A DNA stretch of 64,000 bases from a virus (IMGVR_UViG_3300009151_000035:83554-147553); one strand, 5' to 3'; shown: positions 13,900 to 61,507, counted from the stretch's first letter. The notes: generated by a model from the letters alone, not told the origin. Program-made: numbers and translations.

Positions 13900-15048
13900 A
13901 TGAGCAATTTTTATTGTGCCGCACCCTGGCGTGGCCTACACATCAATCCCCGTGGCGACGTAAAGACTTGTTGTGCCGGCAACCCCAACATGCTGGGCAA
14001 TTTAAACTCACAAACCATTGAGCAGATATTGAATAGCAATCTCATGACAGACATACGCACCAGTTTGGCCAAAGGTGAGCCGCACGAATACTGCTCTAAT
14101 TGTGTGCGAGCCGAACGCTTTGGTGCGGACTCAGAGCGTCAATGGCACAACAATGTAAATCCCAACTTTGATTATACTACAGCTGGAGACCAGTATCACT
14201 ATCCTGTGATTGTGGATGTGCGTTGGAATACCACTTGTAATTTAAGTTGCAACTACTGTGGCGAGTCATGCAGCTCAAAATGGGCGTCGATCAAAGGCAT
14301 TCCTTTTAAGAGCGGTGCAAGACCTTACTATGATTCAGTCTGTGATTTTATTGAACAACACTACGAACACATACACGAAGTCGCACTTGTAGGCGGTGAA
14401 CCTTTGTTACTGCCAGAAAACAACAGACTGCTAGATGTCATACCAACGGATGCCATAGTCACGCTGATCACAAACTTAAATGTAGATTTGGATTCAAACA
14501 AGATATTCCAAAAGTTATCAACCCGTAACCGAGTAGGTTGGTCAATGAGCTTTGACAATATAGGTGACCGCGTGGAGTATGTGCGACACGGTGCCAGCTG
14601 GGAGTTGATCAAAGAAAATCTCGCCAAGATCAAACATCTGATGACCACTCAAGGACAGTGGGGCGGTATACATGCAGTGTACAACATCTACAATGCCACA
14701 CGCATTTGTGAGTTAAGGCAGTTTGCTGAAGACACAGGTACTACAGTGCTGTGGCAGAATTTGTTTCAGCCTGAGTACCTTGATCCATTCTTACATGGCG
14801 CAGGTGTTGCACGTGAAGCCATAGCAGAGATTGAACGTTTTTATGAGATGAACATTGCCACACCTGCTGAGCGGCAGTTTTTTGACAATGCATTGACCAC
14901 ATATCGCAATAGATTGAATGAGGACAAAGTCAGCAAAATTGACACAGCATTTTTCAAGCACATACATGAAAATGAAACTCGATACCATCCAGATAAAGCT
15001 GGTGAATTTCAACGGCTATGGCCGGAACTAGCATTTTTATGCAAATAA
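13900..15048 (+). CDS. radical SAM protein with N-terminal twitch/SPASM-like Cys domain
   Basis: CNLSCNYC, GGEP; N-terminal CAAPW...TCC...CSNC. Confidence 0.9.
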   Translation: MSNFYCAAPWRGLHINPRGDVKTCCAGNPNMLGNLNSQTIEQILNSNLMTDIRTSLAKGEPHEYCSNCVRAERFGADSERQWHNNVNPNFDYTTAGDQYHYPVIVDVRWNTTCNLSCNYCGESCSSKWASIKGIPFKSGARPYYDSVCDFIEQHYEHIHEVALVGGEPLLLPENNRLLDVIPTDAIVTLITNLNVDLDSNKIFQKLSTRNRVGWSMSFDNIGDRVEYVRHGASWELIKENLAKIKHLMTTQGQWGGIHAVYNIYNATRICELRQFAEDTGTTVLWQNLFQPEYLDPFLHGAGVAREAIAEIERFYEMNIATPAERQFFDNALTTYRNRLNEDKVSKIDTAFFKHIHENETRYHPDKAGEFQRLWPELAFLCK

Positions 15049-15602
15049 CACCAGTCGACGAATATAACAATCTTTTTGAAATAACAGATATAATATCTCA
15101 CGATCTCATGGAAAAAATATTGTCTACGCCATGGCTAGATTTGCCTTGGTCACGTCAAGAAGGACAGGAACATTGGTTCCGCCGCCGTATTTCAAATGAC
15201 AGTGTACCCTGGACCACTGAGTGGAATGATCACATAAACAAAATGTGGCCCAAGGTAGGAGAAGCCATTGGAAGAAAATTAGAAATATCATATGGCTCCA
15301 CATGGTGGATTGACGAGCCAGAATTTACATGTGACATGCACACCGACGGTGATTTAAAAGGAGCCATGCAAATAATTTGTATTGCTGCCCACAAACAATT
15401 GGGAACTTGTTTTTATCATGACAAAAATGGAACTCAAGTAAGAAAACAATTTTTATCTATACCAAACACCGGTTATGTAATGTTAAATTTTCCCAGGAAA
15501 AATGGACTTACTCATTTGCACTGGCATGCAATGTCATGCAAAGTACCTCCGGGAACTTTTAGACTAAGTAGCTATACCTTATTAACACCATCAAAACAAT
15601 GA
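15039..15602 (+). CDS. 2OG-Fe(II) oxygenase-like protein
   Basis: HTD...GT.FY...NTGY...WH...R.S facial-triad pattern. Confidence 0.6.
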   Translation: MQITPVDEYNNLFEITDIISHDLMEKILSTPWLDLPWSRQEGQEHWFRRRISNDSVPWTTEWNDHINKMWPKVGEAIGRKLEISYGSTWWIDEPEFTCDMHTDGDLKGAMQIICIAAHKQLGTCFYHDKNGTQVRKQFLSIPNTGYVMLNFPRKNGLTHLHWHAMSCKVPPGTFRLSSYTLLTPSKQ

Positions 15603-16744
15603 TAACTAAAAGTCCTACATTTTGTCCAGCACCATGGACTAGTCTCAACATTGACCAAGCTGGTGAAACCAGCCCGTGTTTTCATTGTGTTGATATGATT
15701 GGCAACAACAAAAAAAATACCATCCAAGAAATCATACATGGCGCTAAAGCAACCAGCATGCGAGAAGCAATGGCACGTGGCGAATGGCATCCAGGGTGCA
15801 GTTGGTGTAAACGACTGGAAGAAACCACAGGCACCAGTGGTAGAACCGTAAGAGGTGCAAGTGAAGAAACACTAGCGGCAATTGACAAGGACATTAACTT
15901 TTTTAAATTAGAACATCTAGTGGTTAACTGGAGCAATCTTTGCAACTTAACCTGTGTGTATTGTAATGACCAAACATCTACTGCCTGGCAAAGTGTTAAA
16001 AAAATTCCTATCAATCATGTGAAAAATGAACATGCAGATTTGATTGATCTAGCACAAACTCAAGGGCACAACATACAGGGACTTAGTTTGGGTGGAGGAG
16101 AACCCTTGCTGCAAAAAGGACTTGAGGTATTTTTAAGCTATCTCAATCCTGCCACAGTGTCAGTAATGGTCACAACCAATCTCAGTATGGAGATCACAAC
16201 CAATCCTATCTATCAGTTATTGAAAACTTGGCCCAAGGTAGAATGGATGGTCAGTTTTGACAATGCCCACAAAGAAAAATTTGAATATGTAAGAGACCGA
16301 GCAAACTGGGAACAGTTTGTAAAAAACATACGGCAAATGAAACAGGATGGACAACGTGTAAACGCACATCCTGCTTACAGTATCTATTGTGCATTGGATC
16401 TTGTTGAATATTATGATTTTTGCATTGAAGAAAATTTAGGTGTCTACTGGTGTGAACTCAATCATCCAATAGAATTAGACATAAGAAGACACAATCAAAA
16501 TTTACGACACAGTGCAGTTGCAGCCATTGATCAGGTTCTAACCAAGTATGGCGATAAAAAAAGTCTAGCCATTGATGTGCTAAAAACTTATCGCAATACA
16601 TTACAAGACAATAGTTATCTTCGAGACCAAGAATTTTTCAAACCATCAAACACACTAAAATGGCATGAGAAAATTGAAAACACTTTGAGCAAAAAAAATA
16701 AATTTGTTGATCTGTGGCCAGAGCTGACAAAGGAAATGCAATGA
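15599..16744 (+). CDS. radical SAM protein with N-terminal auxiliary Cys domain
   Basis: CNLTCVYC, GGGEP; CPAPW...PC..C...CSWC. Confidence 0.9.
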   Translation: MITKSPTFCPAPWTSLNIDQAGETSPCFHCVDMIGNNKKNTIQEIIHGAKATSMREAMARGEWHPGCSWCKRLEETTGTSGRTVRGASEETLAAIDKDINFFKLEHLVVNWSNLCNLTCVYCNDQTSTAWQSVKKIPINHVKNEHADLIDLAQTQGHNIQGLSLGGGEPLLQKGLEVFLSYLNPATVSVMVTTNLSMEITTNPIYQLLKTWPKVEWMVSFDNAHKEKFEYVRDRANWEQFVKNIRQMKQDGQRVNAHPAYSIYCALDLVEYYDFCIEENLGVYWCELNHPIELDIRRHNQNLRHSAVAAIDQVLTKYGDKKSLAIDVLKTYRNTLQDNSYLRDQEFFKPSNTLKWHEKIENTLSKKNKFVDLWPELTKEMQ

Positions 16745-17490
16745 TGCCACAGGTCACTACTCCACCTTGGCATAGTAATATCAGTTTGACTGCTGGCAAA
16801 ACTTATCAATGGTGGCCTACAGATACTGAAGAAAGTTTTGACCGTATGATGCAAGATCCTGTACATCGTGCATACTTTCAAGAAAAAGCATGGGATAAGC
16901 CAGACACTATTAGCTATAAAATAAACAGTGACGGATTTAGGTCAGAAGAATTTGATCCTTTGGCTGATAATTTAGTGGCATTGGGTTGCAGCTTTACCAT
17001 GGGTATTGGATTGCCATACAAAGATTTATGGCCAACTAGATTGGCACAAGCGTTAAATTTAAGAGCATGCAACTTTGGATGGGGTGGCGCCAGTTCAGAT
17101 CAGTGTTTTAGATTGGCCGATTATTGGATTCCACGATTGAAACCAAAATTAGTAGTGCTTTTAAATCCGCCACGTGGTCGAATGGAAGTTGTGGTGAATG
17201 AGACCACAGGAGAAACTGATACTGTAATGCCCATGAGCAATCACCTGGATGTGTTTGTTAAAAAATGGTTAAGTGTAGATGCAAATCAACGATTAAATAA
17301 TCGCAAGAACAGTCTGGCCATTGAAGCTGTATGCAATCAACTCAGCATACTATTCTTAAGCTACGAAGCAGATGTCTGGATGAGCCGCAGTAGGGAAGAA
17401 GCAGAGTATGCAAGAGACTATATGCATGCTGGACCAAGAGGTCATGCAACATTTACCGAAAGAATACTGGATGATTGGTCTAAAAAGTAA
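16741..17490 (+). CDS. SGNH/GDSL hydrolase/acyltransferase-like protein
   Basis: LGCSFTMG block I, NFGWGGASSD block II, DYMH.G block V. Confidence 0.65.
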   Translation: MMPQVTTPPWHSNISLTAGKTYQWWPTDTEESFDRMMQDPVHRAYFQEKAWDKPDTISYKINSDGFRSEEFDPLADNLVALGCSFTMGIGLPYKDLWPTRLAQALNLRACNFGWGGASSDQCFRLADYWIPRLKPKLVVLLNPPRGRMEVVVNETTGETDTVMPMSNHLDVFVKKWLSVDANQRLNNRKNSLAIEAVCNQLSILFLSYEADVWMSRSREEAEYARDYMHAGPRGHATFTERILDDWSKK

Positions 17491-22575: not shown

Positions 22576-23571
22576 ATGGCATCTTTAGCAGAAATCCGAG
22601 CAAGACTACAGGCAGCTGAAAACAAAGGCAACTCAAACCAAGGTGGAGGCGATCGAGCAATTTATCCACACTGGAATATGGAAGAAGGTCAATCGGCCAC
22701 ACTACGCTTCTTACCTGACGGTAACACAAAAAACACATTTTTCTGGGTCGAACGAGCAATGATCCGACTGCCATTCAACGGCGTCAAAGGAGAAATGGAA
22801 TCCAAACAAGTATTCGTACAAGTACCCTGCGTGGAAATGTGGGGAGACGCTTGCCCGGTACTGGCAGAAGTTCGTACTTGGTTCAAGGACAAGAGCCTTG
22901 AGGACATGGGTCGCAAGTACTGGAAAAAACGTTCATATCTGTTCCAAGGTTTTGTGCGTGAGAATCCCATCTCCGAAGACAAGACTCCGGACAATCCCAT
23001 CCGCAAGTTCATCATTGGACCTCAACTGTTTACCTTGATCAAGGGTGCGTTGATGGATCCTGAGCTGGAAGAATTGCCAACTGACTTGATGCGTGGCTTG
23101 GACTTCCGTATCACCAAGACCCAAAAGGGTGGCTTTGCTGACTACAACAGTTCCAAGTGGGCTAGAAAAGAGTCAGCACTCACAGAAGCTGAACAGGCTG
23201 CAATTGAAACTCACGGCTTGTATGACTTAAGCACATTCTTGCCCAAGCGTCCTGGCGATGTTGAACTGAAGGTGATCAAAGAGATGTTTGAAGCATCAGT
23301 AGACGGACAACCATACGACACCGAGCGTTGGGGTCAATACTTTCGTCCTGCAGGCGTAGCCGCACCCGGTGGTGCTGCCAGCGATGCTGATGACACTCCG
23401 GCACCTGCTGCTAAGCCAGCACTGAAGGTGGCTGCACCAGCAGCACCTGCGGCTGAAGATTCGTTTGATGAAGAACCAGCGTCTGCTGCCGCGCCAGTCA
23501 CAGCAGCCAAACCTAGTGGTAATGCCCAAGACATTTTGGCCATGATCCGCGCACGTCAAAACAAGCAGTAA
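22576..23571 (+). CDS. single-stranded DNA-binding protein (gp32-like)
   Basis: LRFLPD, C..CP, YWKKR, G.DF.I.K, ADY..SKW; acidic Ala-rich tail; AGGAG RBS. Confidence 0.9.
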   Translation: MASLAEIRARLQAAENKGNSNQGGGDRAIYPHWNMEEGQSATLRFLPDGNTKNTFFWVERAMIRLPFNGVKGEMESKQVFVQVPCVEMWGDACPVLAEVRTWFKDKSLEDMGRKYWKKRSYLFQGFVRENPISEDKTPDNPIRKFIIGPQLFTLIKGALMDPELEELPTDLMRGLDFRITKTQKGGFADYNSSKWARKESALTEAEQAAIETHGLYDLSTFLPKRPGDVELKVIKEMFEASVDGQPYDTERWGQYFRPAGVAAPGGAASDADDTPAPAAKPALKVAAPAAPAAEDSFDEEPASAAAPVTAAKPSGNAQDILAMIRARQNKQ

Positions 23572-24197
23572 TGCTGACAGCTCTTGATCAAGAGCTGTTT
23601 CCTAAACTTTGTGAAGTGGTAGCAATGCCACTTCACAATCAGTGGATTTATTTGATTCAAAAAAATGGAAGCAGTAGTTTGAGATTACAACAAGAACAAA
23701 ACAATCTTGATGTATTTTGTAATGAACAAATTTTGTCACTTGATTTTGTAGATGTTTATATCCGAAATCCAAAAGCCAGATATGTAAGTGGAGTCAACAC
23801 TTATTTGCAACATCTATTTCGAGATCATCCAGAACTTGATGTCAAAACTGCCTTATGGTTTGCCAAACGCTACAAATTTTTAAACACACACTATCTGCCA
23901 CAGTTTCACTGGGTAGCAAATCTAAGTCAGTATCTCAAACCCACAACTAAAATACGATTTAGAGATTTAAAAGAGCTTGACAAAATAACTGATTTTCGAG
24001 ACCGTGCTTTGATTGATCCACCCAGTCAAGATTTTGTAAAAAAATTACTTGAAAATGACCCTAGTGCAGAGTTATGGTGGTATTTAGATCAAATCTTGCT
24101 TGACTTAGATGGTAAACTGTTGACCTGGCAAGAACTCATTAATCATTACAAGAGTAATTATCCAGACATCATAGCACATGTATTGCCCAAGACTTGA
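23571..24197 (+). CDS. sulfotransferase-like protein (Sulfotransfer_2 type)
   Basis: IQKNGSSS (5'-PSB loop), IRNPKARYVSG (3'-PB), HYLPQ. Confidence 0.65.
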   Translation: MLTALDQELFPKLCEVVAMPLHNQWIYLIQKNGSSSLRLQQEQNNLDVFCNEQILSLDFVDVYIRNPKARYVSGVNTYLQHLFRDHPELDVKTALWFAKRYKFLNTHYLPQFHWVANLSQYLKPTTKIRFRDLKELDKITDFRDRALIDPPSQDFVKKLLENDPSAELWWYLDQILLDLDGKLLTWQELINHYKSNYPDIIAHVLPKT

Positions 24198-25062
24198 TCA
24201 TTTTGTTAGATTCAATCCCAATGGTACCGTAAGCCGTTGCGGTCACATGGTCAACCCACCGCAGTTTGAAAATCTTGAACAATTAGAATTGAGCAAATGG
24301 TTGAGCGACATTAAGGTTAAATTTCAAACAGATATTTGGCCAACTGAATGTAGTCGTTGTAGTCAAATTGAACAGCAAGGTAATGACAGTATAAGAACAT
24401 ACGCAATAAAATTAGATCAACAAGAAACACAAGTTGATTATTTACAAGTAGGTGGAGTATTAGACAATGTATGTAATGCAGCTTGCCAGACTTGTAATCC
24501 AAACTGTAGCACTAGAATTGGCAGTTTAATTGGGAAAACTTTTCCTATTGTAAACAACAGTGATCAGTTTAAAAATCTTCCACAACAGCGCATTAGACAT
24601 TTGGATATTAACGGGGGAGAACCCAGTTATAGCAAAAACTACAAAACACTATTGGCCAATTTGCCACCTAACCTTAAAACGTTACGTCTTAATACCAATT
24701 GCAATGTGGTGTTGTATGAATTGGTGGACATTGCACAGTCTGGTGTGAACGTTACTGTTACTGTAAGTTGCGATGGCATTGGTCCAATACACGAGTTCAT
24801 GCGATGGCCGATCAAGTGGGACACTTTTTATAAAAACTTAATGGTATATAAAACCATGCCAGTAACATTAAATTTGTGGACCACAGTTAGCTGTTTGAAT
24901 GTCGAGGATTTGCCTAACATACAGGCATTTGCTCAAGAACTTGACATTGATCATTCTTATGCATATCTTGAAGAGCCTGCGATTTTAAGTATAAACAATA
25001 AAGATCAACAATCAATAGATGCATACATACAAAAACAAAAAGACCTAAGGGGGATCAAGTGA
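24178..25062 (+). CDS. radical SAM protein with N-terminal auxiliary Cys domain
   Basis: CNAACQTC, GGEP; YCPRL.H...RCGH...CSRC. Confidence 0.9.
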   Translation: MYCPRLDHFVRFNPNGTVSRCGHMVNPPQFENLEQLELSKWLSDIKVKFQTDIWPTECSRCSQIEQQGNDSIRTYAIKLDQQETQVDYLQVGGVLDNVCNAACQTCNPNCSTRIGSLIGKTFPIVNNSDQFKNLPQQRIRHLDINGGEPSYSKNYKTLLANLPPNLKTLRLNTNCNVVLYELVDIAQSGVNVTVTVSCDGIGPIHEFMRWPIKWDTFYKNLMVYKTMPVTLNLWTTVSCLNVEDLPNIQAFAQELDIDHSYAYLEEPAILSINNKDQQSIDAYIQKQKDLRGIK

Positions 25063-25532
25063 AATACTATACTGTGGTGGAATGCGATCACACTCAAGTT
25101 ATTGCTGACAAAATTTATAATTTTTTAAAAACTCAGACTGAGTTGTTGCAAGTAATAAATTTTGGATGGAATTTTATTGATCATATTGCAGTTCTTGAGC
25201 AGGTGCCAGAATTGTTTGAATTTTTTAAAAACAAAAAACTAGTACCAAGAAATGCCGCAGTTACCATAATTGAAACTAACAAACATTTGCCCCGGCATAT
25301 CGATCAGCTGCCAGTTGTGGCAAAAATGAACTTTCCTGTAATTAATACCCAAGGGTGGGCCAATCGTTGGTATGTTGATAACAAGTTAGTTGCAGAACTA
25401 CAAGATATGCCAACACCAATAGTGTTCAATTCACAGATTGAACACAGCGTAGAAAGAACAACAGCAATCAAGATTCCTAGAATTGTTGCTAGTTTTACAT
25501 TTTATAACGAACCACTGCACTTACTACAATGA
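25059..25532 (+). CDS. 2OG-Fe(II)/cupin-like oxygenase
   Basis: HID...NFPV.N...FNSQIEHSV...PR. Confidence 0.55.
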   Translation: MKYYTVVECDHTQVIADKIYNFLKTQTELLQVINFGWNFIDHIAVLEQVPELFEFFKNKKLVPRNAAVTIIETNKHLPRHIDQLPVVAKMNFPVINTQGWANRWYVDNKLVAELQDMPTPIVFNSQIEHSVERTTAIKIPRIVASFTFYNEPLHLLQ

Positions 25533-26074
25533 AAATAGCAATAACTGGTCATACTGCGGGAATTGGATTGGCCCTCAGTAAACAATTAGTTGAGCAGGGG
25601 CATGAAATTATTGGCCTAAGCAAAAGGCATGGAGATAACATACGCAATATACCTAAAATATGTGATCAAGTTGAACCTTGTGATGTATTTGTAAACAATG
25701 CTCAAGCTGGTTTTGCACAAACAGAATTGTTGTTTGAAATGAGCAAGCGATGGAAACATTTACGCAAACACATTGTGGTGATCAGCACTATAATGACTCA
25801 AGATCCAATAAGCATGTTACCGGGTATTGAGATGATTGAATATCGAGCACAAAAAGTCACACTAGAACATGCAGTGCAACAATTGAGACATGCCAGACTT
25901 GGCATAAAATATACGATTGTTAGACCAGGAAATATTGCTACCAGTGCAGATAAAACTGTGCCGCCGGCTGCTGATGTAGACAACTGGGCTAGAGTGCTAA
26001 TAAATATTTTGGATATGGCACAAGCCAACAGCTTGGTTGTTGCTGATATTTCGTTAGGCCCGGTGTTCCAATGA
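25529..26074 (+). CDS. short-chain dehydrogenase/reductase
   Basis: ITGHTAGIG, NNA, YRAQK (YxxxK), RPG. Confidence 0.85.
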   Translation: MKIAITGHTAGIGLALSKQLVEQGHEIIGLSKRHGDNIRNIPKICDQVEPCDVFVNNAQAGFAQTELLFEMSKRWKHLRKHIVVISTIMTQDPISMLPGIEMIEYRAQKVTLEHAVQQLRHARLGIKYTIVRPGNIATSADKTVPPAADVDNWARVLINILDMAQANSLVVADISLGPVFQ

Positions 26075-27213
26075 CTCCAAAAGAGATGTTAACCAACTCA
26101 TATTTTTGTCCCATGCCATGGTCTGGAATGATGTATAACTTCGATGGCGAAGTGAAAAACTGTATTCGTAGTGCCGGTAAACTTGGTAATATCAAGGAAC
26201 AACCTATACAGCAGATTTTGATTGATAACAACCGACCCAGGCAAGATCATATTGTAAACCAACAACCAGTGGCCACTTGCCATACTTGTTATGACCTTGA
26301 AGGTAGCAATACAGGTTTAAATATCATTAGCGATCGTGTGTTCTACATAAAAGAACTCAAGCACACTCCTACTTCTTTATATACTCCTGGAAATTTCGAC
26401 CTTCAAGCCATTGACGTAAGATGGACCAATCTTTGTAATTTTGCATGCGTCTACTGCGGCCCCATGTTCAGTAGCAAATGGGCCAGTGAGTTAAAAGTTG
26501 TTCAACATAGCCCTACTACAGATCAGATTGATCAGTTCAAACAATATGTGTTTGAACATGCTGCGCAACTCAAACATGTATATCTAGCCGGTGGTGAACC
26601 ACTGCTGATGAAAGAGAATTTAGAACTATTAGTGTTGTTAAAAAAAGTCAATCCAGATGTAAACCTGCGCATCAATACCAATCTTAGCAAAGTAGATACT
26701 CAGGTGTTTGATTTGGTATGCGGATTTAAAAACGTTCATTGGACGGTGAGTGTTGAAACTGTAGAACAAGAATTTGAATACATCAGATATGGCAGCAGTT
26801 GGATAGACTTCCAAGAAAATCTTAAAACAATCAAAAATTTGAATCATAAGATATCTTTTAACATGTTGCATTTTTTGCTAAATTATCAAAGCATATTTGG
26901 TTGTGTAGATCATTTGAAATCTTTGGGATTCCACAACAACAGTTTCATAATCGGAGCTTTACTTGACCCACTATACCTAAATGTTAGACATTTGCCAGAT
27001 CATGTGTTACACTCACTGAAATACACGCTGCAAGAAAAAATTAATCAACAACCAAAGTATCTCTTAGAACAAAGCTATCGAAATATGTTGAGCTATTTGA
27101 ATCAACCATTTGAAAAAAATCTAGCAGGAGCAATAGAAAAATTGCAGACGCTGGATCAAAGAAGAGGATTAGATAGTAAAACAATTTTTCAAAATTTATA
27201 CAACTTAATTTAA
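26071..27213 (+). CDS. radical SAM protein with N-terminal auxiliary Cys domain
   Basis: CNFACVYC, AGGEP; CPMPW...NC...CHTC. Confidence 0.9.
   Translation: MTPKEMLTNSYFCPMPWSGMMYNFDGEVKNCIRSAGKLGNIKEQPIQQILIDNNRPRQDHIVNQQPVATCHTCYDLEGSNTGLNIISDRVFYIKELKHTPTSLYTPGNFDLQAIDVRWTNLCNFACVYCGPMFSSKWASELKVVQHSPTTDQIDQFKQYVFEHAAQLKHVYLAGGEPLLMKENLELLVLLKKVNPDVNLRINTNLSKVDTQVFDLVCGFKNVHWTVSVETVEQEFEYIRYGSSWIDFQENLKTIKNLNHKISFNMLHFLLNYQSIFGCVDHLKSLGFHNNSFIIGALLDPLYLNVRHLPDHVLHSLKYTLQEKINQQPKYLLEQSYRNMLSYLNQPFEKNLAGAIEKLQTLDQRRGLDSKTIFQNLYNLI
26985..27013 (+). promoter_or_regulatory. possible internal sigma70 promoter for uvsX inside the radical SAM gene
   Basis: TAGACA-17-TACACT with extended TG. Confidence 0.4.
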
Positions 27214-29390: not shown

Positions 29391-29648
29391 ATGGAAACAA
29401 TCGTAAGTGAAATCTGGAGCGAACTCAAGCGGTTTGTAAACACTGTTGATCGAGCCGAGGCGGCAGAGACTGTGGTGCAAATCTTAATGGACAATGATAG
29501 TGATGTAGAAGATATCCGCAACGCTTTCAAAGGTGATACTGATATCAAACGAGCACTCACAGCATATCTTGACAACGACAAAGACTATGCTGAAGACGAA
29601 GAAGATCCTGAAGAAGAGGATTACAACGAAGACGACTGGGAAAATTAA
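29391..29648 (+). CDS. small acidic hypothetical protein
   Basis: AAGGA RBS, acidic tail. Confidence 0.65.
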   Translation: METIVSEIWSELKRFVNTVDRAEAAETVVQILMDNDSDVEDIRNAFKGDTDIKRALTAYLDNDKDYAEDEEDPEEEDYNEDDWEN

Positions 29649-30100: not shown

Positions 30101-30300
30101 AACAAGACTATTTTGATTGGAAAAATCAACAGGCTGTAAACAATCAAGAACAACTTGAATTGCAATGGCAACAAGTTCGCAGCCAGTTGACTCTCGAAGA
30201 ATTGGCCTGGCAAAATGATCTAGAAGAAATACAACTTGTATTGTTGATTGTTCTAGTCGCAAGTTGGATTGCATACTGGTATTTTTCGGTACACTTGTAA
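30097..30300 (+). CDS. small membrane protein
   Basis: GTG overlapping uvsY stop; C-terminal hydrophobic helix. Confidence 0.4.
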   Translation: MKQDYFDWKNQQAVNNQEQLELQWQQVRSQLTLEELAWQNDLEEIQLVLLIVLVASWIAYWYFSVHL

Positions 30301-30320
30301 TTACAGTGATACATAACAGT

Positions 30321-31082
30321 ATGAAAATTGCACTTGTCACCGGCGGCTTTGACCCGCTACACTCCGGGCACATTGCCTATTTCAAAGCAGCACGCACACT
30401 GGGCGACATGCTGATTGTGGGTCTCAATTCGGATGAATGGCTCACACGCAAAAAAGGTCGGCCGTTTATGCCGTGGACAGAAAGATTGTGTGTGATAAAC
30501 AATCTTGCCATGGTAGATGAAGTTTACACCTTTGATGATTCAGACGGTTCTGCATGTCATTTTATACAGCAGATTCGAGCACACTATCCTGATGCTGACC
30601 TTGTGTTTGCCAATGGCGGCGATCGTACACACACAAACATTCCAGAGATGGATGTTAAAGATAGCAATTTAGAATTTGCATTTGGTGTAGGCGGATCCAA
30701 CAAAACAAATTCAAGCTCGTGGATTTTGGAAGATTGGAAAAAGCCTCGGACTCAACGAGCTTGGGGGTATTATCGTGTGCTACACGAAGTCGGCGCCAAC
30801 ACCAAGCTGAAAGAACTCACAGTCACACCTAAAACTTGCCTGAGCATGCAACGACATGACAAGCGAGCAGAGTTTTGGTTTGTGGCCGAAGGTGAAGCCA
30901 CAGTATACACACTGGATTCTAGTACCGATAGAGATGTTAAAGACCATCTTACTGTACATGAGTCATGTTGGATCAACCGTAACGAATGGCATCAACTGTG
31001 CAATGAAACTGATCGCCCACTTCGACTGATTGAAATACAGTTTGGCGAAGATTGTGTGGAAGAAGATATCGAACGCCTATGA
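30321..31082 (+). CDS. cytidylyltransferase (HxGH) fused to type II phosphomannose-isomerase cupin
   Basis: GGFDPLHSGH, LNSD.WL.RKKG, ANGGDR; R.WG.Y...LSMQRH..R.E.W...WH. Confidence 0.88.
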   Translation: MKIALVTGGFDPLHSGHIAYFKAARTLGDMLIVGLNSDEWLTRKKGRPFMPWTERLCVINNLAMVDEVYTFDDSDGSACHFIQQIRAHYPDADLVFANGGDRTHTNIPEMDVKDSNLEFAFGVGGSNKTNSSSWILEDWKKPRTQRAWGYYRVLHEVGANTKLKELTVTPKTCLSMQRHDKRAEFWFVAEGEATVYTLDSSTDRDVKDHLTVHESCWINRNEWHQLCNETDRPLRLIEIQFGEDCVEEDIERL

Positions 31083-31759
31083 AGCCAATTCCAATTTTCG
31101 TAGGGTATGATCCAAGAGAAGCCATTGCATATCATACCTGTGTAAATTCAATCATACGCAACAGCAGTCAACCTGTGGCCATTGTGCCTGTGGCACTAAA
31201 TTTGTTTCGAGACTACAGCGAAACACACACAGACGGAAGCAATCATTTTATCTACACACGATTCCTTGTGCCCCATCTCATGCAATACGAAGGCTGGGCA
31301 GTATTCATTGACGGCGATATGATTGTGCGTGGAGACATTGCAGAACTTTGGAACTTGAGGCAACTTGACAAAGATGTCATGGTAGTCAAACATAATTACA
31401 AAACCAGCCGGACCGAAAAGTACCTTGGCGCCAAAAACGAAGACTATCCATGCAAGAACTGGTCAAGTGTTATACTGTGGAATTGCAACAGCCATCCCAA
31501 TAGACGTCTCACACCAGAATTCGTGCAAAAGTCCACTGGCGCCGAACTGCATAGATTCACATGGCTAAAGGACGAACGCATAGGCGAATTGCCTCCAGAA
31601 TGGAATTGGTTGCCTGATGAATACGGGCCAAACCCCGCGGCCAAGCTCTTGCATTATACCTTGGGCACTCCATGCTTTCACGAGTTTGCTGATACACCAC
31701 AAGGCAACGAGTGGCACCGGGAACGCATGCTTACAGAATATTGTCAACAACGCATATGA
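31079..31759 (+). CDS. GT-A glycosyltransferase (GT8-like)
   Basis: FVGYDPRE, TRFLVP, FIDGDM, KNWSS, EWNWL, HYTLGTP. Confidence 0.8.
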   Translation: MKPIPIFVGYDPREAIAYHTCVNSIIRNSSQPVAIVPVALNLFRDYSETHTDGSNHFIYTRFLVPHLMQYEGWAVFIDGDMIVRGDIAELWNLRQLDKDVMVVKHNYKTSRTEKYLGAKNEDYPCKNWSSVILWNCNSHPNRRLTPEFVQKSTGAELHRFTWLKDERIGELPPEWNWLPDEYGPNPAAKLLHYTLGTPCFHEFADTPQGNEWHRERMLTEYCQQRI

Positions 31760-32517
31760 TTTTTTTAAGCAAAAATGGCAAGGATGAATACATTAACATG
31801 CTTGCGTATGGCTGTGGACAACAACCAGTCGCTGATTTTGATTATGATGCCAGTGACCAACCTATAGTTTTGCGTGGTATCTTAAAACACAAAATAATGA
31901 AACGCTGTTGGCACGACAAGCGAGATTTTTATTACGTAGACACTGGATACTTTGGCAACGGTCGATGGAAGCAATGGCATCGCATTGTAAAAAATAATTT
32001 GCAGTTGACAGAGATACAGAATAGCCCGGGAGACCGTTGGGAAAAACATGGACTCAAATTTCAACCATGGCGACAAGGCCGCAATATTGTGGTGGCTGCA
32101 CCTGATGAGAAACCTTGTAAATTTTATGAGATAGATCTCAATACTTGGATAGAACAAACAGTTGCCATAATTCGACAACATACTGACAGACCAGTAGTAG
32201 TAAGACAACGATCTCCCAAACGCATAGACAGAATAACCACAGATACCCTAGCACAAGCTCTAACAGATGCACATGCCTTGGTCACATTCAATTCTAATGC
32301 TGCAACCGAAAGTATATTATTAGGAGTTCCTGTATTTACTCTTGCTCCTAACGCTGCTGGACCAGTTGGATTGCAAGATCTATCGCAAATTGAAAAGCCG
32401 TATTATCCCGATCAGGATAAATTACATGCATGGGCCTGTCATTTAGCTTATGGACAGTTTCATAACGACGAACTTAGTGACGGCACAGCCGCTAGAATAT
32501 TATTTGAACATGACTAA
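31756..32517 (+). CDS. KpsC/KpsS-like GT-B glycosyltransferase
   Basis: DTGYF, TDRPVVVR, VTFNSNAATESILLGVPVF. Confidence 0.6.
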   Translation: MIFLSKNGKDEYINMLAYGCGQQPVADFDYDASDQPIVLRGILKHKIMKRCWHDKRDFYYVDTGYFGNGRWKQWHRIVKNNLQLTEIQNSPGDRWEKHGLKFQPWRQGRNIVVAAPDEKPCKFYEIDLNTWIEQTVAIIRQHTDRPVVVRQRSPKRIDRITTDTLAQALTDAHALVTFNSNAATESILLGVPVFTLAPNAAGPVGLQDLSQIEKPYYPDQDKLHAWACHLAYGQFHNDELSDGTAARILFEHD

Positions 32518-33271
32518 ATTTGCAGTAGTTACCAGTATGGATCATGCATATTATGAAAAATGCGGGCGTGCCTGCATCGAAAGTTTCAATCAGTATTGGC
32601 CCAACAGCATACCCTTGTATGTGTATGATGAAGGCATTCAAGATCGACCTAAACATAAAACGGTACACTATCAACCCTGGACAGATCTTGGAAAAGACTA
32701 TAAAGAGTTCATTGCAGGACCTTGGACCTCTAGAACTATCACTTTTGCTAAAAAAGCATTCAGTATCATGGCAGGTGCTCGGGATATAGATTGCGATAGG
32801 TTAATTTGGCTGGACGCTGATGTAGTTACACTACAAGAGATAAATCAACATCTTTTGGATTTGATTTCTCCCCCAGAGATATTGAGCACACATTATGGTG
32901 TGATGCATCCTTGGCCCAGCGACACTGATCAAACTAGATTTAGTTTTAGTTGCGAAACTGGTTTTTTTATATTGAATCGCCGACATGCCATGTTTGAGAC
33001 CATGATGAATCAATATCAAGATTGGTATGTGACCGGCAGAGGAAATGAGTTACGAAGATTTTATGATGGCGAAGTTTATGGAGCAGTAATCAAAGAAATG
33101 GAAAATCAAGGTGCTAGAGTTATGGAACTAAATCCGGAACAGCGACACAGAACACCTATTCCTCGCAGTGTAATGGCTCCTTATATCATGCACTACAAGG
33201 CTGGAGCGAAAGAACCTTTTAACAGCGAAATGCTGTTACAGCATCATGGCATCAGTAGCAGTATATCATAA
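32510..33271 (+). CDS. GT-A glycosyltransferase (DxD)
   Basis: FAKKAFSI, WLDADV, ETGF, HYK; paralog of 35648-36457. Confidence 0.7.
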   Translation: MTKFAVVTSMDHAYYEKCGRACIESFNQYWPNSIPLYVYDEGIQDRPKHKTVHYQPWTDLGKDYKEFIAGPWTSRTITFAKKAFSIMAGARDIDCDRLIWLDADVVTLQEINQHLLDLISPPEILSTHYGVMHPWPSDTDQTRFSFSCETGFFILNRRHAMFETMMNQYQDWYVTGRGNELRRFYDGEVYGAVIKEMENQGARVMELNPEQRHRTPIPRSVMAPYIMHYKAGAKEPFNSEMLLQHHGISSSIS

Positions 33272-34157
33272 GTCGGTTCCTTCAAGTAATAAAAATCTTG
33301 AGAAGCCTTTGATTTTGACCAACTTTTCTCAAGGTGTAAAAAGAACTGGCGATGTAGTAATTGATGTGCAAGGATATGAGTGTGTGTCAACAGATGTTGG
33401 CATGATACAAGGTTGGGTACACGCTCTAACAGATACTCCGCATTTGAAGTTGCGTCACTCAGCGATACTATCACATCGCAGCATTGTTGCAGCAGATAGC
33501 AATTTATTCTTGTACAAAAACAGTACCAACCCAGGAAATTATTTGCGATACAGCTTCAATGGTATTTTTCCTAATTCTGGAATTTACTGTGATGATCAAG
33601 TTGATCCTGCAAGATGGCAGCAAATACAACGCAATCTCAATCTTGCTGTAAAAGACTATAGGAAATCAGGACAACACATTTTGCTATGCTTACAACGTAA
33701 CGGTGGTTGGAGTATGGCCGGACTTGATGTAGTTGCGTGGACACTAGATACTATTAACACTTTAAGAAAACATACTTCTAGACCAATTGTGATTCGTGCT
33801 CATCCGGGAGATAAGTCAAGTAAGAATTATGTAAAACAATTGCAGGGACTTGTAAATGTAAATATCAGTGAACCGGGAAGAACCATTGAACAAGATTTAG
33901 TTGACTGTTGGGCAGTGATCAATTACAATTCCAGTTCCGTGGTTGGTGCTGCCATAGAAGGATATCCAGTATTTGTAACTGATCCTGTCCGTAGCCAATG
34001 CAAAGATATCGCCAACACTGATCTGGCCCAAATTGAAAATCCAGTATTGTATGACAGACAGTCTTGGTTGGAACGCATATCCATGTTCCACTGGAATTTT
34101 CAAGAACTCAGCAATGGTGCATGTTGGACACACATGCGAAAATGGATCAATAAGTAA
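33246..34157 (+). CDS. KpsC/KpsS-like GT-B glycosyltransferase
   Basis: LQ...WS, IRAHPGD, NSSSVVGAAIEGYPVF. Confidence 0.65.
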   Translation: MASVAVYHKSVPSSNKNLEKPLILTNFSQGVKRTGDVVIDVQGYECVSTDVGMIQGWVHALTDTPHLKLRHSAILSHRSIVAADSNLFLYKNSTNPGNYLRYSFNGIFPNSGIYCDDQVDPARWQQIQRNLNLAVKDYRKSGQHILLCLQRNGGWSMAGLDVVAWTLDTINTLRKHTSRPIVIRAHPGDKSSKNYVKQLQGLVNVNISEPGRTIEQDLVDCWAVINYNSSSVVGAAIEGYPVFVTDPVRSQCKDIANTDLAQIENPVLYDRQSWLERISMFHWNFQELSNGACWTHMRKWINK

Positions 34158-34161
34158 CAAC

Positions 34162-34833
34162 ATGACACATATAATTAACGATTTACAATTTCCGTTTGAA
34201 GACTACTTTCAGAAACATTCTGGAAATATTTTATTATTTGGCAAAGCTTCTAGAGATGTGGCACTGACCCATGTTAAAAATTATCGCACAGTTGTGGACA
34301 TTGGTGCTCACGTTGGTATCAGCGTTCATTGTTGGGCGCCACTGTTTGAACAAGTGATAGCATTTGAGCCAATGGTCGATCATTACGAGTGTCTGATGGA
34401 GAATACAAAGAAATTTTCAAATGTAACTGTACACAATTGTGCAATGTCAAATCAAAACGCCATGCTCAAAGGTGCGTATCGCACACTCAAGAATTCGGGT
34501 AGTTTTCAATTGGTAGACGACGAGTTTATTAGAACTAATCGTAAACAAACAACTATCTATAACATTCCTAGTCGCAGATTAGATGAGTTTGAATTAACTG
34601 ATGTTGACCTTATTAAAGTGGATGTGGAGGGCTGGGAGTTTGAAGTACTCAAAGGCGCCCAGGAAACAATAAGTCGTTGCCGTCCTACTTTAATGATCGA
34701 ATTCACTGGCGGCGGTGCTCGTAAAAGCATGACCAGTTACAATGTTGACGAATATCAAAAATTAATTGATGATCTTGGATACCATTCAGTAGCCAGTGTA
34801 GACGACGATACAATATACATTCCCAATGATTGA
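34162..34833 (+). CDS. FkbM-family SAM methyltransferase
   Basis: VDIGAHVG, AFEP, IKVDVEGWE..VLKGA, RP..MIE. Confidence 0.9.
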   Translation: MTHIINDLQFPFEDYFQKHSGNILLFGKASRDVALTHVKNYRTVVDIGAHVGISVHCWAPLFEQVIAFEPMVDHYECLMENTKKFSNVTVHNCAMSNQNAMLKGAYRTLKNSGSFQLVDDEFIRTNRKQTTIYNIPSRRLDEFELTDVDLIKVDVEGWEFEVLKGAQETISRCRPTLMIEFTGGGARKSMTSYNVDEYQKLIDDLGYHSVASVDDDTIYIPND

Positions 34834-36457: not shown

Positions 36458-36468
36458 CTCACATACTT

Positions 36469-50068: not shown

Positions 50069-51494
50069 TGTCCAACGCCTATTTCTAGAAATGATGTTGG
50101 AGGACGCACAGAGTTATGTGCGTGTTCAAAACATCTACAACCCGCAGAACTTTGACAAGAGTTTGAGACCTGCGGCTGAGTTTATCAAAGAACACTCAGA
50201 CAACCATAAGACCTTACCAGACCGCATGCAAATTTCAGCCACCACAGGCGTTAAATTGGCAGCCGTACCGGACTTGAATGAAGGACACTTTGACTGGTTC
50301 ATGGGCGAGTTTGAAGCATTTACTCGACGCCAGGAACTAGAGCGAGCTATTTTAAAAGCCGCAGACCTGCTTGAAAAAGGCGAATATGATCCGGTTGAAA
50401 AACTCATCAAAGATGCAGTGCAAATATCGCTTACCAAAGACATGGGCACAGATTACTTTGCTGATCCCAAGAGTCGCATTGAGAAATACTTCAACTCAGG
50501 CGGACAAGTAAGCACAGGTTGGCCGCAACTGGATCGACTGCTGTATGGCGGATTCAGTCGTGGTGAACTCAATATCTTTGCCGGGGGATCAGGATCAGGC
50601 AAATCACTTGTGATGATGAACATTGCTCTAAACTGGCTACAGCAAGGACTAAGTGGTGTATACATCACGCTAGAACTTTCAGAAGAACTTACTAGCTTGC
50701 GAACTGATGCTATGTTGACCAACATGAGCACCAAGGACATTCGCAAGGACATTGATACTACAGAACTCAAGGTCAAACTGGTGGCCAAGAAGTCAGGTAA
50801 CTATCAAGTAAAAGGCTTGCCTGCACAAAGCAACATCAATGACATTCGTGCTTATTTAAAAGAGTATCAAATTCAAACAGGCAAGCGAGTAGACTTTGTA
50901 ATGATTGACTACTTGGACTTGCTGATGCCTGTGAGTGCCAAAGTCTCGCCCAATGACTTGTTTGTAAAGGACAAGTATGTGAGTGAAGAACTGCGCAACT
51001 TGGCCAAAGAGCTGGGTATCTTGATGGTAACAGCATCGCAGTTGAATCGATCAGCGGTGGAAGAAATTGAATTTGATCACAGCCATATATCAGGTGGTAT
51101 TTCAAAGATTAACACAGCAGATAATGTGTTTGGTATTTTTACAAGTCGTGCAATGAAAGAGCGTGGCAAGTATCAGATCCAGTGTATGAAGTCTCGAAGC
51201 TCGACCGGCGTTGGTCAAAAGATTGATTTGGAGTACAACATTGAAACCATGCGCATTACTGATGAAGGCGGGGATGATAACGAAAACGGGTTTAGCAAAA
51301 AGCCCAGCTCAAGTATCATGGACTCGATCAAAGCAAAAAGCCAAGTTAGTGCAGCCGCCGCAGATGATGCCAAGGCTCCACCTTGGGACCGACCACAGGC
51401 CCGAGAAGGTTTTGACATAGAAACACCCAAGGTCACAGCAGATGTACAGAGCGCTAAACTCAAACAGTTATTAGGCAAGATCAAGACATCATGA
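50046..51494 (+). CDS. replicative helicase (gp41/DnaB family)
   Basis: STGW..LD, GGSGSGKS, TLELSE, IDYLDL, TASQLNR, KSR. Confidence 0.93.
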   Translation: MLKDYGLDVQRLFLEMMLEDAQSYVRVQNIYNPQNFDKSLRPAAEFIKEHSDNHKTLPDRMQISATTGVKLAAVPDLNEGHFDWFMGEFEAFTRRQELERAILKAADLLEKGEYDPVEKLIKDAVQISLTKDMGTDYFADPKSRIEKYFNSGGQVSTGWPQLDRLLYGGFSRGELNIFAGGSGSGKSLVMMNIALNWLQQGLSGVYITLELSEELTSLRTDAMLTNMSTKDIRKDIDTTELKVKLVAKKSGNYQVKGLPAQSNINDIRAYLKEYQIQTGKRVDFVMIDYLDLLMPVSAKVSPNDLFVKDKYVSEELRNLAKELGILMVTASQLNRSAVEEIEFDHSHISGGISKINTADNVFGIFTSRAMKERGKYQIQCMKSRSSTGVGQKIDLEYNIETMRITDEGGDDNENGFSKKPSSSIMDSIKAKSQVSAAAADDAKAPPWDRPQAREGFDIETPKVTADVQSAKLKQLLGKIKTS

Positions 51495-52594
51495 GCAAAT
51501 ATTGCCCTAGGATACATCATGGATTAATGCTGGCCGAAATTAACAGACAATCACTATCATACTCGGTGTGTTGTTGGGCCGACCAGTTAATTCGTACATC
51601 AGATCAAGTTAATTTTTTTCATCCAAACTTAGCTCAACTGCGTGTTGAAAATCAACAAGATACTTTACCAAAATCTTTCTGTGCTAAGTGTATTGTACAG
51701 GAAAATTCAAACAAAAAAAGCATGCGATTGGGTTACCTCGAAACGCATGGCAAAGAAACATACGATTCAAGCATTCAGTATCTCGACGTCAATATTGACT
51801 ATACATGCAATTTGGCTTGTGTAACGTGCGGTCCAGAGTTAAGCACTACCTGGAGGAACGAACTTGGGATAAAAGGCATTGACGTTAGACCCAATATAGA
51901 CAATTTTATAAAAACAAAACTACACACACTTGACCTTTCCCGCTTGCGAGAAATTCGCATGTGGGGCGGCGAGCCATTTTTAACACTAACTCACAAACAA
52001 ATATTACAACATTTAATTGAGCATGTAGATGTGAGTCAAATTACATTGATGTATAATACCAATGGCACGCAACGCATTGATCAATCAACCAAGGAACTTA
52101 TTGAAAAATTTAAATTTGCTCGAATAAGTTTTAGCATTGATGGCATAGGCAATCAATTTGAATATTTGCGGTATCCAGCCAAGTGGAATGAAGTTGAAGA
52201 AAATTTGTTTTGGTGGCAAAAAAACTTGCCTCACAATAGTATGTTATCGTTGACTGTAACTGCTAGTATTTTGAATATTTTGAGACTTGACGATGTGTGC
52301 AATTGGCACAAACAACACTTTTCAAAATCTGTATTTGGTGATGACATTGAAATATACATACATCAAGCATTTGGTATATACGGCTTAGAATCCATGCCTG
52401 ACGCCATGATTGAGTATTTAATATCCAAACTTGACTATTGTCAGCCTTGGATACAACAATTGAAAATTTTAGGAACACAAAAATATAACTTGAAAAAAGT
52501 CCTAGAACAATTACAAAAGAATGATCATCGCCGAAACTTAAATATGGCGGCGGTCTTTCCAGAAGTTGCTGCCTTTATAAATTATCAAAAATAA
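51491..52594 (+). CDS. radical SAM protein with N-terminal auxiliary Cys domain
   Basis: CNLACVTC, WGGEP; YCPRI.H...VCC...CAKC. Confidence 0.9.
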   Translation: MSKYCPRIHHGLMLAEINRQSLSYSVCCWADQLIRTSDQVNFFHPNLAQLRVENQQDTLPKSFCAKCIVQENSNKKSMRLGYLETHGKETYDSSIQYLDVNIDYTCNLACVTCGPELSTTWRNELGIKGIDVRPNIDNFIKTKLHTLDLSRLREIRMWGGEPFLTLTHKQILQHLIEHVDVSQITLMYNTNGTQRIDQSTKELIEKFKFARISFSIDGIGNQFEYLRYPAKWNEVEENLFWWQKNLPHNSMLSLTVTASILNILRLDDVCNWHKQHFSKSVFGDDIEIYIHQAFGIYGLESMPDAMIEYLISKLDYCQPWIQQLKILGTQKYNLKKVLEQLQKNDHRRNLNMAAVFPEVAAFINYQK

Positions 52595-53682: not shown

Positions 53683-53931
53683 ATGCAAAAACGCACCCGC
53701 AGTTTACTAGAAGAATTAGACGATCTGTACATCGAGCGTGATCGCCGCCTGTTGATTGAAAATCGTGCGGCCACTCTTATTGCTAATGCTATTAGATTGC
53801 TAGAACAAATTGATACAGAGTTTCCAGCTGATCAGGCTGAAAATTTGCAGCGCAAATTGCTTAACGCTATTCGTACAAGAGACTCGGGTAAATTTGCCAG
53901 ATCAGTGAGAAGAACAAATGCAGATACATGA
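53683..53931 (+). CDS. small helical hypothetical protein
   Basis: MQKRTRSLLEEL; TAAATA at 53657. Confidence 0.65.
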   Translation: MQKRTRSLLEELDDLYIERDRRLLIENRAATLIANAIRLLEQIDTEFPADQAENLQRKLLNAIRTRDSGKFARSVRRTNADT

Positions 53932-60315: not shown

Positions 60316-60331
60316 TATAGTCAACTAATAG

Positions 60332-60360: not shown

Positions 60361-60378
60361 ATGCTGTAGGAGGCCCGT

Positions 60379-60657: not shown

Positions 60658-60839
60658 AACACTGGAAAGCTCCTGTCACCTACGTTGCAAATGATGTGAC
60701 AAAAAGTTATGTTGCCACAGTGGCAGCAGAAAATCAGTTTGAAGCGGTGAATGAGTTCCACAAGAAGTTTGGCACAGACTGCTTGATAGGTTGGATACAG
60801 GAAACAAAATTATATGGCTTACAGTCAATCGGTTATTGA
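60654..60839 (+). CDS. small hypothetical protein
   Basis: ATGA coupling, 61 aa. Confidence 0.5.
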   Translation: MKHWKAPVTYVANDVTKSYVATVAAENQFEAVNEFHKKFGTDCLIGWIQETKLYGLQSIGY

Positions 60840-61200
60840 TCACTATGAAAACCCACGCAATGTGGGTAGCTTTGCCAAGGACGACGAACACGTGGGAACT
60901 GGCATGGTTGGTGCGCCGGCCTGCGGCGATGTTATGAAATTGCAAATCAAAGTTAAAGATGGTATCATCACAGACGCAAGATTCAAAACCTACGGATGCG
61001 GCAGTGCGATTGCCTCCAGTTCTCTCGTTACCGAGTGGGTTAAAGGCCAAACGCTTGAGCAAGCGTCAACTATTAAAAATTCAGCAATTGCTAAAGAACT
61101 CTCGCTGCCACCTGTCAAAATCCATTGTTCAATCCTTGCTGAAGACGCCATCAAAGCGGCTGTAGAAGACTACAGAAAGAAGCATGATCTCTCTAACTGA
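60814..61200 (+). CDS. iscU: Fe-S cluster scaffold IscU
   Basis: DHYENPRNVG, GAPACGDVM, GCGSAIASSS, LPPVKIHCS. Confidence 0.97.
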   Translation: MAYSQSVIDHYENPRNVGSFAKDDEHVGTGMVGAPACGDVMKLQIKVKDGIITDARFKTYGCGSAIASSSLVTEWVKGQTLEQASTIKNSAIAKELSLPPVKIHCSILAEDAIKAAVEDYRKKHDLSN

Positions 61201-61507
61201 TCGTGCGTATACCAAAGTAAAACGACTTCTGCAAGCTAAAGACTATGCTGGCATTCGGCTTGGAGTGAAAACTACAGGTTGCTCAGGCTTGGCTTATGTG
61301 TTAGAATATGTACAAGAATACAAACCTTCAGAATCTGACATAAACTATGCACAAGCAGACTTTGTGGTATTAGTTGACAAGAAAAATGAAGTGTATCTCA
61401 AAGGCATTACCGTGGACTATGTGCGCCAAGGCCTCAATGAGGGCTTTGAATTTGTCAATCCTAACGAACGCGACCGTTGTGGGTGTGGTGAAAGTTTTAG
61501 AGTTTAG
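61184..61507 (+). CDS. iscA: A-type Fe-S carrier IscA
   Basis: GCSGLAY, F.NPN, CGCGESF. Confidence 0.95.
   Translation: MISLTDRAYTKVKRLLQAKDYAGIRLGVKTTGCSGLAYVLEYVQEYKPSESDINYAQADFVVLVDKKNEVYLKGITVDYVRQGLNEGFEFVNPNERDRCGCGESFRV

Follow-up and report, generated by a model that had tools for sequence, protein, structure and literature searches.

A 64,000-nucleotide stretch of viral DNA (here called the window), corresponding to bases 83554-147553 of the 147.5-kb IMG/VR virus contig IMGVR_UViG_3300009151_000035 (CheckV completeness 42%), encodes seven radical S-adenosylmethionine (SAM; rSAM for the enzymes) proteins in which a predicted four-cysteine twitch domain precedes the barrel, together with the iron-sulphur (Fe-S) proteins IscU and IscA. 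We interpret the seven as diverged members of the catalogued family NF033640 that would tailor sugars, and the two Isc proteins as a separate Fe-S helper module, a reading to which we give a probability of roughly 0.6. Radical tailoring of sugars is favoured because the informative gene contexts of the family hold nucleotide-sugar or glycan genes. The seven genes are the following (aa, amino acids; bit scores refer to NF033640):

13900..15048, plus strand: rSAM1, 382 aa, 214.9 bits; SPASM at residues 6-68, Radical_SAM at 111-247
15599..16744, plus strand: rSAM2, 381 aa, 198.4 bits; SPASM at residues 9-70, Radical_SAM at 110-253
24178..25062, plus strand: rSAM3, a short protein of 294 aa without the C-terminal tail, 144.8 bits over profile positions 11-335
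26071..27213, plus strand: rSAM4, 380 aa, directly upstream of uvsX, 235.1 bits
28281..29378, plus strand: rSAM5, 365 aa, a Cx3C variant between uvsX and uvsY, 148.7 bits over profile positions 3-391
51491..52594, plus strand: rSAM6, 367 aa, after the gene of a DnaB-like helicase, 190.3 bits
52575..53618 (likely extent), minus strand: rSAM7, its 3' end overlapping that of the convergent rSAM6 by 20 bp, 191.7 bits

All seven open reading frames (ORFs) are intact and match Radical_SAM-type models, and the CxxxCxxC and GGEP motifs by which a first-pass annotation of this DNA had singled them out are present in 7/7. Six of the gene positions given there stand; the gene at 52575, however, lies on the minus strand. 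Its start is likely an internal Met at 53618 rather than the GTG at 53774, because the family match begins only at residue 53 of the 399-aa frame which that GTG opens. NF033640 (N_Twi_rSAM, "twitch domain-containing radical SAM protein") matches every copy with E-values from 4e-42 to 1e-69 and aligns with each nearly end to end, across the twitch domain, the CxxxCxxC core and the C-terminal helical tail. The curated whole-protein cut-off of 170 bits is passed by rSAM1, rSAM2, rSAM4, rSAM6 and rSAM7 (5/7, repeated at genome level) and missed by rSAM3, which lacks the tail, and by rSAM5, which has Cx3C where the others have CxxC. These two are divergent relatives rather than strict members; we count them as relatives because most of the profile is aligned, the ligand cysteines are kept and both are nested in the family tree. 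In particular, rSAM3 keeps the four cysteines of the N-terminal domain (N-domain) as well as CxxxCxxC and GGEP.

The order of the domains sets these enzymes apart from the reviewed definition of the group, in which SPASM and twitch domains are C-terminal extensions after the barrel (PMC9012708), as in BtrN, anSME and SkfB: in all seven the auxiliary domain is N-terminal. The Pfam profile SPASM is aligned over its whole length (positions 1-66/67) at residues 6-74 in three copies, ahead of Radical_SAM (about residues 100-280), and a canonical-order neighbour in a metagenome-assembled genome (MAG, locus L089) matches the same positions of the hidden Markov model (HMM) at its C-terminus. The seven-way alignment shows four cysteines of the N-domain (C6, C24, C65 and C68 in rSAM1 numbering), C113/C117/C120 and G165-G-E-P to be invariant, and the four N-domain cysteines are likewise invariant across an alignment of 55 diverse family members. 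The first-pass annotation had proposed this permuted order and a conserved N-terminal cysteine set, both of which were borne out by the HMM search, the alignments and structure prediction. Its description of the N-terminal motifs was accurate in style, with CxxPW in four copies, CPRxxH in two and YCSQKFW in the seventh, but not for the closing pair of rSAM5, and the tail it had noticed in most copies, of the form D..RR....FPE, is present in 6/7 as well as in the family consensus, and is missing from rSAM3. From these ligands, two [4Fe-4S] clusters per enzyme are predicted: one that cleaves SAM, held by CxxxCxxC, and a fully Cys-ligated auxiliary cluster.

Structure prediction supports the assignment of the N-domain. 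The first 102 residues of rSAM4, modelled alone at a pLDDT of 90.8, were compared with 48,161 PDB representative chains, and the sole match above noise was residues 163-249 of BtrN, its twitch domain (Z 4.1 over 80 residues; next best Z 2.3). A phmmer search with the N-domain of rSAM1 returned as its only PDB match the same stretch of BtrN, weakly (E 0.62) and with all four cysteines aligned. On the strength of these models and alignments we regard the N-domain as a twitch domain of the BtrN type, with four cysteines and a position ahead of the barrel. The AlphaFold2 (AF2) model of the complete rSAM4 (pLDDT 95.5, pTM 0.92) has a partial TIM barrel as its core, nearest to BlsE, MoaA, anSME and SkfB with Z 11.9-12.7 over the core only. 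No whole-chain structural twin of rSAM4 was found in the PDB (Foldseek TM about 0.4; VIA Z at most 12.7, core only).

The window N-domain has its structural and sequence counterpart in the twitch domain of BtrN, a 2-deoxy-scyllo-inosamine dehydrogenase and the archetypal twitch radical SAM enzyme, with the four ligand cysteines in register. BtrN's auxiliary cluster is ligated by four cysteines and thought to accept an electron, and its substrate is sugar-like (PMC9012708). The window enzymes differ in that the twitch domain precedes the barrel and in having an extra conserved C-terminal helical region that ends in D..RR....FPE; overall identity to BtrN is about 15-20%.

Three further radical SAM genes lie outside the window, so that the whole 147-kb contig encodes about ten. 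One is a 242-aa paralogue with the family core and C-terminal tail and no twitch domain (G000:C1:50898-51626; L085:1399-2127), preceded by two mutually paralogous ORFs of no assigned function and followed by the gene of a His-box desaturase-like membrane protein. The other two (G000:C1, L086:946-1797 and L087:1236-2198) show the canonical order, with CxxxCxxC close to the N-terminus and a C-terminus that is Cys-rich and twitch-like; they match NF033640 weakly, and phmmer found no relative of them in the PDB. Judging from these sequences, the source phage carries both domain orders.

The gene contexts of the family provide insight into the likely substrate. Bacterial contexts were reached through IscU loci as handles and through a sample of 401 Pseudomonadota genomes, two of which carry the family. 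One bacterium (G111) has four tandem copies in an O-antigen locus of the ABC-transporter type (rmlC-rmlD-wzm-wzt), next to TylF-type and class-I methyltransferases and a WbsX glycosyltransferase (GT). An 854-aa frame on its contig 19 (L180:8579-11143) fuses Wzt and the carbohydrate-binding Wzt_C to a full N-twitch radical SAM enzyme, which suggests action on, or coupling to, exported polysaccharide. In a second bacterium (G182) a family copy adjoins genes for a GT2 and an NDP-sugar epimerase/dehydratase near prophage-like genes. At the MAG locus L089 an NTP_transferase gene heads an array of about ten radical SAM genes, after which come genes for a GDSL hydrolase and AsnB; GDSL genes flank that array, and in the window a weak GDSL match follows rSAM2. 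Two phage contigs have a DegT aminotransferase and phosphomannomutase (PMM; L091) and a UDP-Glc/GDP-Man dehydrogenase and carbamoyltransferase (L265) in the neighbourhood of the family. Nucleotide-sugar or glycan genes are thus present in all five of these informative contexts. A sugar or glycan substrate, already proposed in the first pass, is the best-supported reading, and it is from these contexts that its support comes.

Contig 134 of the second bacterium (L181) has genes for an ERF recombinase and a ParB-methylase beside the N-twitch radical SAM, GT2 and NDP-sugar epimerase genes, a set that may be a prophage-borne module for surface-glycan modification.

The window itself contains a sugar island and several further candidate genes close to the radical SAM genes:

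30264..37317, mixed strands (GT2 on the minus strand): sugar island, identified from Pfam matches and from paralogy in an all-vs-all BLASTP comparison
16714..17490, plus strand: weak SGNH/GDSL-like hydrolase following rSAM2; Lipase_GDSL_2 29.9 bits, below the cut-off of 32.9
23571..24197, plus strand: 208-aa ORF, a sulfotransferase-like lead only; no Pfam or PHROG match, near an ESM Atlas cluster with PF03567 on 14% of its members
25059..25532, plus strand: 157-aa ORF, a weak lead to a cupin/2-oxoglutarate (2OG) oxygenase; Asp_Arg_Hydrox E=0.0068, 16.7 bits, below cut-off
25529..26074, plus strand: 181-aa short Rossmann protein, like the short-chain dehydrogenases/reductases (SDR), overlapping the start of rSAM4; Epimerase and adh_short, N-terminus only

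The island, 7 kb in length, opens about 900 bp past rSAM5 and comprises a cytidylyltransferase+cupin gene, a GT8, three paralogous DUF6716-like GTs, an FkbM methyltransferase, a GT17, and a GT2 with its paralogue. The PHROG matches of the SDR-like protein are a FabG-like reductase and a nucleotide-sugar epimerase, and its gene is kept beside the rSAM4 orthologue in relatives. Among the neighbours that the first-pass annotation had listed, the GTs, the weak SGNH/GDSL match and the short SDR-like protein could be recovered, but its sulfotransferase and 2OG genes are weak leads only.

If the enzymes act on sugars, a 5'-deoxyadenosyl radical would attack a C-H bond in the sugar of a nucleotide-sugar or glycan and remove the hydrogen, and the four-Cys auxiliary cluster would then serve as an electron relay or acceptor; the sugar would thereby be oxidised to a keto-sugar, epimerised or rearranged in a related way. 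A separate step or substrate would fall to each paralogue, and the products would feed the phage's island of GT, methyltransferase and cytidylyltransferase genes, with the virion, the host surface or DNA as candidates for the final target. A bolder version, which we hold to be improbable, is that the N-twitch paralogues and the sulfotransferase-like, cupin-like, short-SDR, cytidylyltransferase and GT genes form a phage-specific multi-step radical pathway. Such a pathway would build an unprecedented and heavily edited sugar displayed on the virion or DNA, and the N-terminal twitch domain would be a new mode of substrate access, e.g., to polymer-bound sugars, as hinted by the bacterial Wzt fusion.

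It is also conceivable that the seven are peptide or protein maturases, which would introduce thioether or C-C cross-links or epimerise residues in a phage peptide or virion protein. Most characterised SPASM/twitch enzymes are such maturases, the best PDB sequence matches of the core are TigE (8vpo), SkfB and YydG/EpeE, and the top-ranking Foldseek matches include SkfB, anSME, SuiB and CteB. Small ORFs without assigned function adjoin several copies (15018-15602 and 29391-29648), and in the Aeromonas giant phage 332-Vera eight radical SAM genes lie within the structural-gene cluster (PMC12390700). The first of these ORFs lies between rSAM1 and rSAM2:

15018..15602, plus strand: 194-aa ORF without a Pfam or PHROG match

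It is seemingly missing between the orthologous pair of a relative (G003), as judged by match spacing, and the adjoining small ORFs are not mutually paralogous in the all-vs-all BLASTP comparison. Pfam gave no domain of the RRE/PqqD type (RRE, recognition element of RiPPs, peptides that are ribosomally synthesised and modified after translation) in any of the seven, although some RiPP maturases lack an RRE. Among the neighbours, where short ORFs were not searched exhaustively, nothing resembling a precursor, whether repeated or Cys-rich, was seen. Peptide-export and protease genes are missing from the informative contexts, all of which have nucleotide-sugar genes, and the N-domain is similar to BtrN's twitch domain, BtrN being an enzyme with a sugar-like substrate. 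Taken together, we consider a peptide or protein substrate unlikely.

The position of the genes bears on a further alternative. The radical SAM genes are separate inserts between T4-like core genes (terL, gp32-uvsX-uvsY, dnaB) and not one operon; UvsX was identified by a Pfam-type scan of the window ORFs and UvsY by a PHROG match. A nucleotide or nucleic-acid substrate, e.g., a hypermodified DNA base or a modified nucleotide, would explain this place in the replication and recombination block, with copies between gp32, uvsX and uvsY and after dnaB/primase. It would be in line with the presence of the nucleotide-acting enzymes MoaA, QueE and viperin among the structural or sequence neighbours and with a double-domain copy on phage contig L091 near thyA and DHFR. 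In T4-like phages, however, accessory genes are usually inserted in the gaps between core genes, and position is therefore weak evidence for such a substrate. Neither deazapurine nor base-hydroxymethylase genes turned up among the Pfam-scanned ORFs of the window, a DNA substrate fits poorly with the bacterial O-antigen contexts, and glycosylation of DNA would itself count as tailoring of sugars. We regard this alternative as quite unlikely.

Sugar tailoring by NF033640 enzymes, the reading we prefer, would concern a large and mostly viral family. In a metagenomic collection clustered at 90%, rSAM4 has more than 3400 homologues; at 50% identity the family comprises 2921 clusters (E<=1e-10), and the nearest ESM Atlas clusters are 93-100% viral. 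Five related IMG/VR contigs have 3-14 family matches each, with six in tandem in one contig of 182 kb, and among the loci with an rSAM4 orthologue 79/80 carry at least one further family gene. Together with the two to seven members on long IscU-bearing contigs described below, these counts confirm the expanded viral family proposed in the first pass. A single paralogue of relative G001 searched against the genome contigs gave no related loci.

Pairwise identity among the seven copies is 18-31% in the seven-way alignment. In a quick maximum-likelihood tree (IQ-TREE, with SH-aLRT as the only support measure) the copies at 13900, 15599, 24178, 26071 and 28281 each form a group of their own, supported at 100, in which two or three relatives are represented by one copy each: rSAM1 and rSAM3 have 1:1 orthologues in G001, G002 and G003, the rSAM2 orthogroup includes copies from G002 and G003, and rSAM5 likewise has an orthogroup with a support of 100. 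rSAM6 groups with a copy from G002 (support 93), and the bacterial arrays are within-genome duplications. Recent tandem duplication as the source of the seven copies is ruled out by their low pairwise identity and the five separate orthogroups. The tree thus indicates that the window copies are old paralogues which were kept separately, and because they are old and separately retained this argues for distinct roles.

Other members of the family show further variation in architecture. Natural fusions of two N-twitch radical SAM units, 790-1106 aa in length, occur at L089:8001-11321, L091:273-2645, P0170, P0179, P0190 and P0192, the first of these with tetratricopeptide (TPR) repeats between its two units. 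Bacterial members of 574-592 aa (L180:4235-5959, L181:8421-10199) have an insertion of about 170 aa between twitch domain and core, which is missing from the phage copies.

The putative Fe-S helper genes lie near the end of the window, at 60814-61507, where the first-pass annotation had placed iscU and iscA:

60814..61200, plus strand: IscU Fe-S scaffold; TIGR01999 222.1 bits, cut-off 192.4
61184..61507, plus strand: IscA-type A-type carrier; TIGR00049 subfamily 102.9 bits, cut-off 58.8

Both identifications stand, and the ligands are intact. As read from the translation, IscU keeps the three ligand cysteines, the Asp two residues after the first of them and LPPVK-IHC; IscA keeps its three conserved cysteines (the Cys in TGCSG and the C-terminal CGCG) and scores 114 bits against the IscA equivalog TIGR02011, below the cut-off of 150.6. 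A complete ISC operon was not seen in the window: no Pfam family corresponding to IscS, HscB/HscA or ferredoxin was found in the approximately 70 window ORFs scanned. We envisage a betaproteobacterial host lineage as the origin of IscU and IscA, which, as a separate module, probably raise the capacity for Fe-S assembly during infection and would thereby help to mature the approximately ten phage radical SAM enzymes. By our estimate one set of these would need roughly 19 clusters. Such a supply line is plausible, and all of the long IscU-bearing viral contigs that were tested (5/5), including one of 374 kb rated 100% complete, carry 2-7 family members.

Several observations weigh against the combined reading of sugar-tailoring enzymes with an Fe-S helper module. 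We know of no biochemically characterised member of NF033640, so that membership alone gives no function. The five sugar-linked contexts were hand-picked for their informative neighbours, and three other look-ups led to uninformative short contigs. The nearest structures and sequences do not tell one substrate class from another, as peptide maturases (SkfB, YydG/EpeE, anSME) tie with enzymes of sugars or nucleosides (BlsE, BtrN, MoaA), and the seven genes are surrounded by genes for replication, recombination and packaging and lie outside the GT island. As regards the Isc proteins, the five co-occurring IscU contigs are close relatives of the source phage and not independent cases. IscU and IscA are 7 kb from the nearest radical SAM gene, and at only 8/80 viral IscU loci is a family member found within 10 kb. 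Moreover, the complete Kyanoviridae phage C48C1 has IscU after DnaB and a family match that is only a 24-bit partial one. The idea of the first-pass annotation that the phage's own Isc proteins provision these enzymes is thus made plausible by co-occurrence on long contigs but is not supported by linkage, nor by C48C1. The 7-kb gap and the 8/80 figure also rule out that IscU and IscA belong to a radical SAM cassette.

The same observations bear on a different role for the Isc proteins, namely that they are general auxiliary metabolic genes (AMGs) which sustain host Fe-S proteins in respiration and nucleotide metabolism rather than a dedicated supply for the radical SAM enzymes. IMG/VR holds at least 600 stretches that encode close IscU relatives, and the low linkage, the condition of C48C1 and the lack of IscS, HscBA and ferredoxin among the scanned ORFs fit this role, as does the treatment of Fe-S genes as photic-zone AMGs in virome work (PMC5332604). 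By contrast, the co-occurrence on all five long contigs and the estimated cluster demand speak for a link with the radical SAM enzymes, which Nishimura et al. reached independently (PMC5332604). Both roles are compatible, and we give the general one a tentative standing, somewhat short of an even chance.

In C48C1 (L262, OQ984149.1:34807-47172) the order primase ... DnaB ... IscU is as in the window, and genes for a nucleotide-sugar epimerase and a UDP-glucose dehydrogenase are inserted after the primase gene.

The T4-type core genes in the window encode a tail sheath, the large terminase (TerL), gp32, UvsX, UvsY, a helicase, a primase and the DnaB-like helicase. TerL is 51% identical to that of the Pseudomonas jumbo phage PA5oct and 48% to that of the Agrobacterium phage Atu_ph07. 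Because of these core genes and the PA5oct/Atu_ph07-like terminase, we take the source to be a fragment of an uncultured jumbo myovirus. The IscU protein is 82-86% identical to IscU of Burkholderiales (e.g., Limnohabitans, Polynucleobacter), and this closest similarity points to a freshwater betaproteobacterial host lineage. A megablast search with the 15.5-kb radical SAM block and a tblastn search with rSAM4 matched nothing among GenBank phages; the cultured relatives represented there have no close copy of rSAM4. Two genes lie upstream of rSAM1:

12015..12827, plus strand: DNA/RNA non-specific endonuclease, about 1 kb upstream of rSAM1; Endonuclease_NS 133 bits
12828..13892: 354-aa ORF of no assigned function, between the endonuclease gene and rSAM1

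At the far end, an ORF with a pectate-lyase-like beta-helix domain (63237-63998, plus strand; PF12708 51.7 bits) runs past the window end and probably encodes a polysaccharide-degrading tail spike.

The first-pass annotation had regarded the genes as the best candidate for an undescribed system, a view that did not survive comparison with earlier work, since the architecture is curated as NF033640 and the combination of IscU with many radical SAM genes was published in 2017 (PMC5332604), followed by radical SAM cassettes in 2020 (PMC7029224). In 2017 Nishimura et al. reported marine viral genomes of the T4-like type in which IscU, an A-type carrier or both occur together with as many as 12 radical SAM genes, and they proposed that phage Fe-S scaffolds serve phage-encoded Fe-S enzymes (PMC5332604). 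Those genomes and the source of the window are alike large T4-like aquatic phages with an Fe-S scaffold and many radical SAM genes. They differ in that the former are marine and the latter is a lake phage with a Burkholderiales-like IscU and a PA5oct/Atu_ph07-like TerL; the domain order of the enzymes was not analysed there. In pelagimyophages, likewise T4-like aquatic phages, Zaragoza-Solas et al. (2020) found the host-recognition cluster to contain radical SAM cassettes (PMC7029224). There the radical SAM genes are variable cassettes of a hypervariable cluster near the tail fibres, whereas the window copies are conserved inserts between core genes. A literature search for the name NF033640 or "N-terminal twitch" returned nothing specific, and among the papers covered none naming or characterising the family was found. 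The window is thus a further example of a catalogued, largely phage-borne family and of a previously published pairing with Fe-S helpers.

With its Fe-S helper genes the window is a further freshwater example of the published idea of phage cofactor economics, and none of the findings amounts to a new principle. NF033640 is a large, mostly viral and uncharacterised family of radical SAM enzymes, and since abundant lake jumbo phages keep 6-14 anciently diverged copies each, what these enzymes catalyse must matter for infection. With the O-antigen and nucleotide-sugar contexts enzymologists have a concrete class of substrates to try, which makes this chemistry testable, and the glycans that such phages may make themselves would be an unexplored factor in host recognition or in the evasion of defence.

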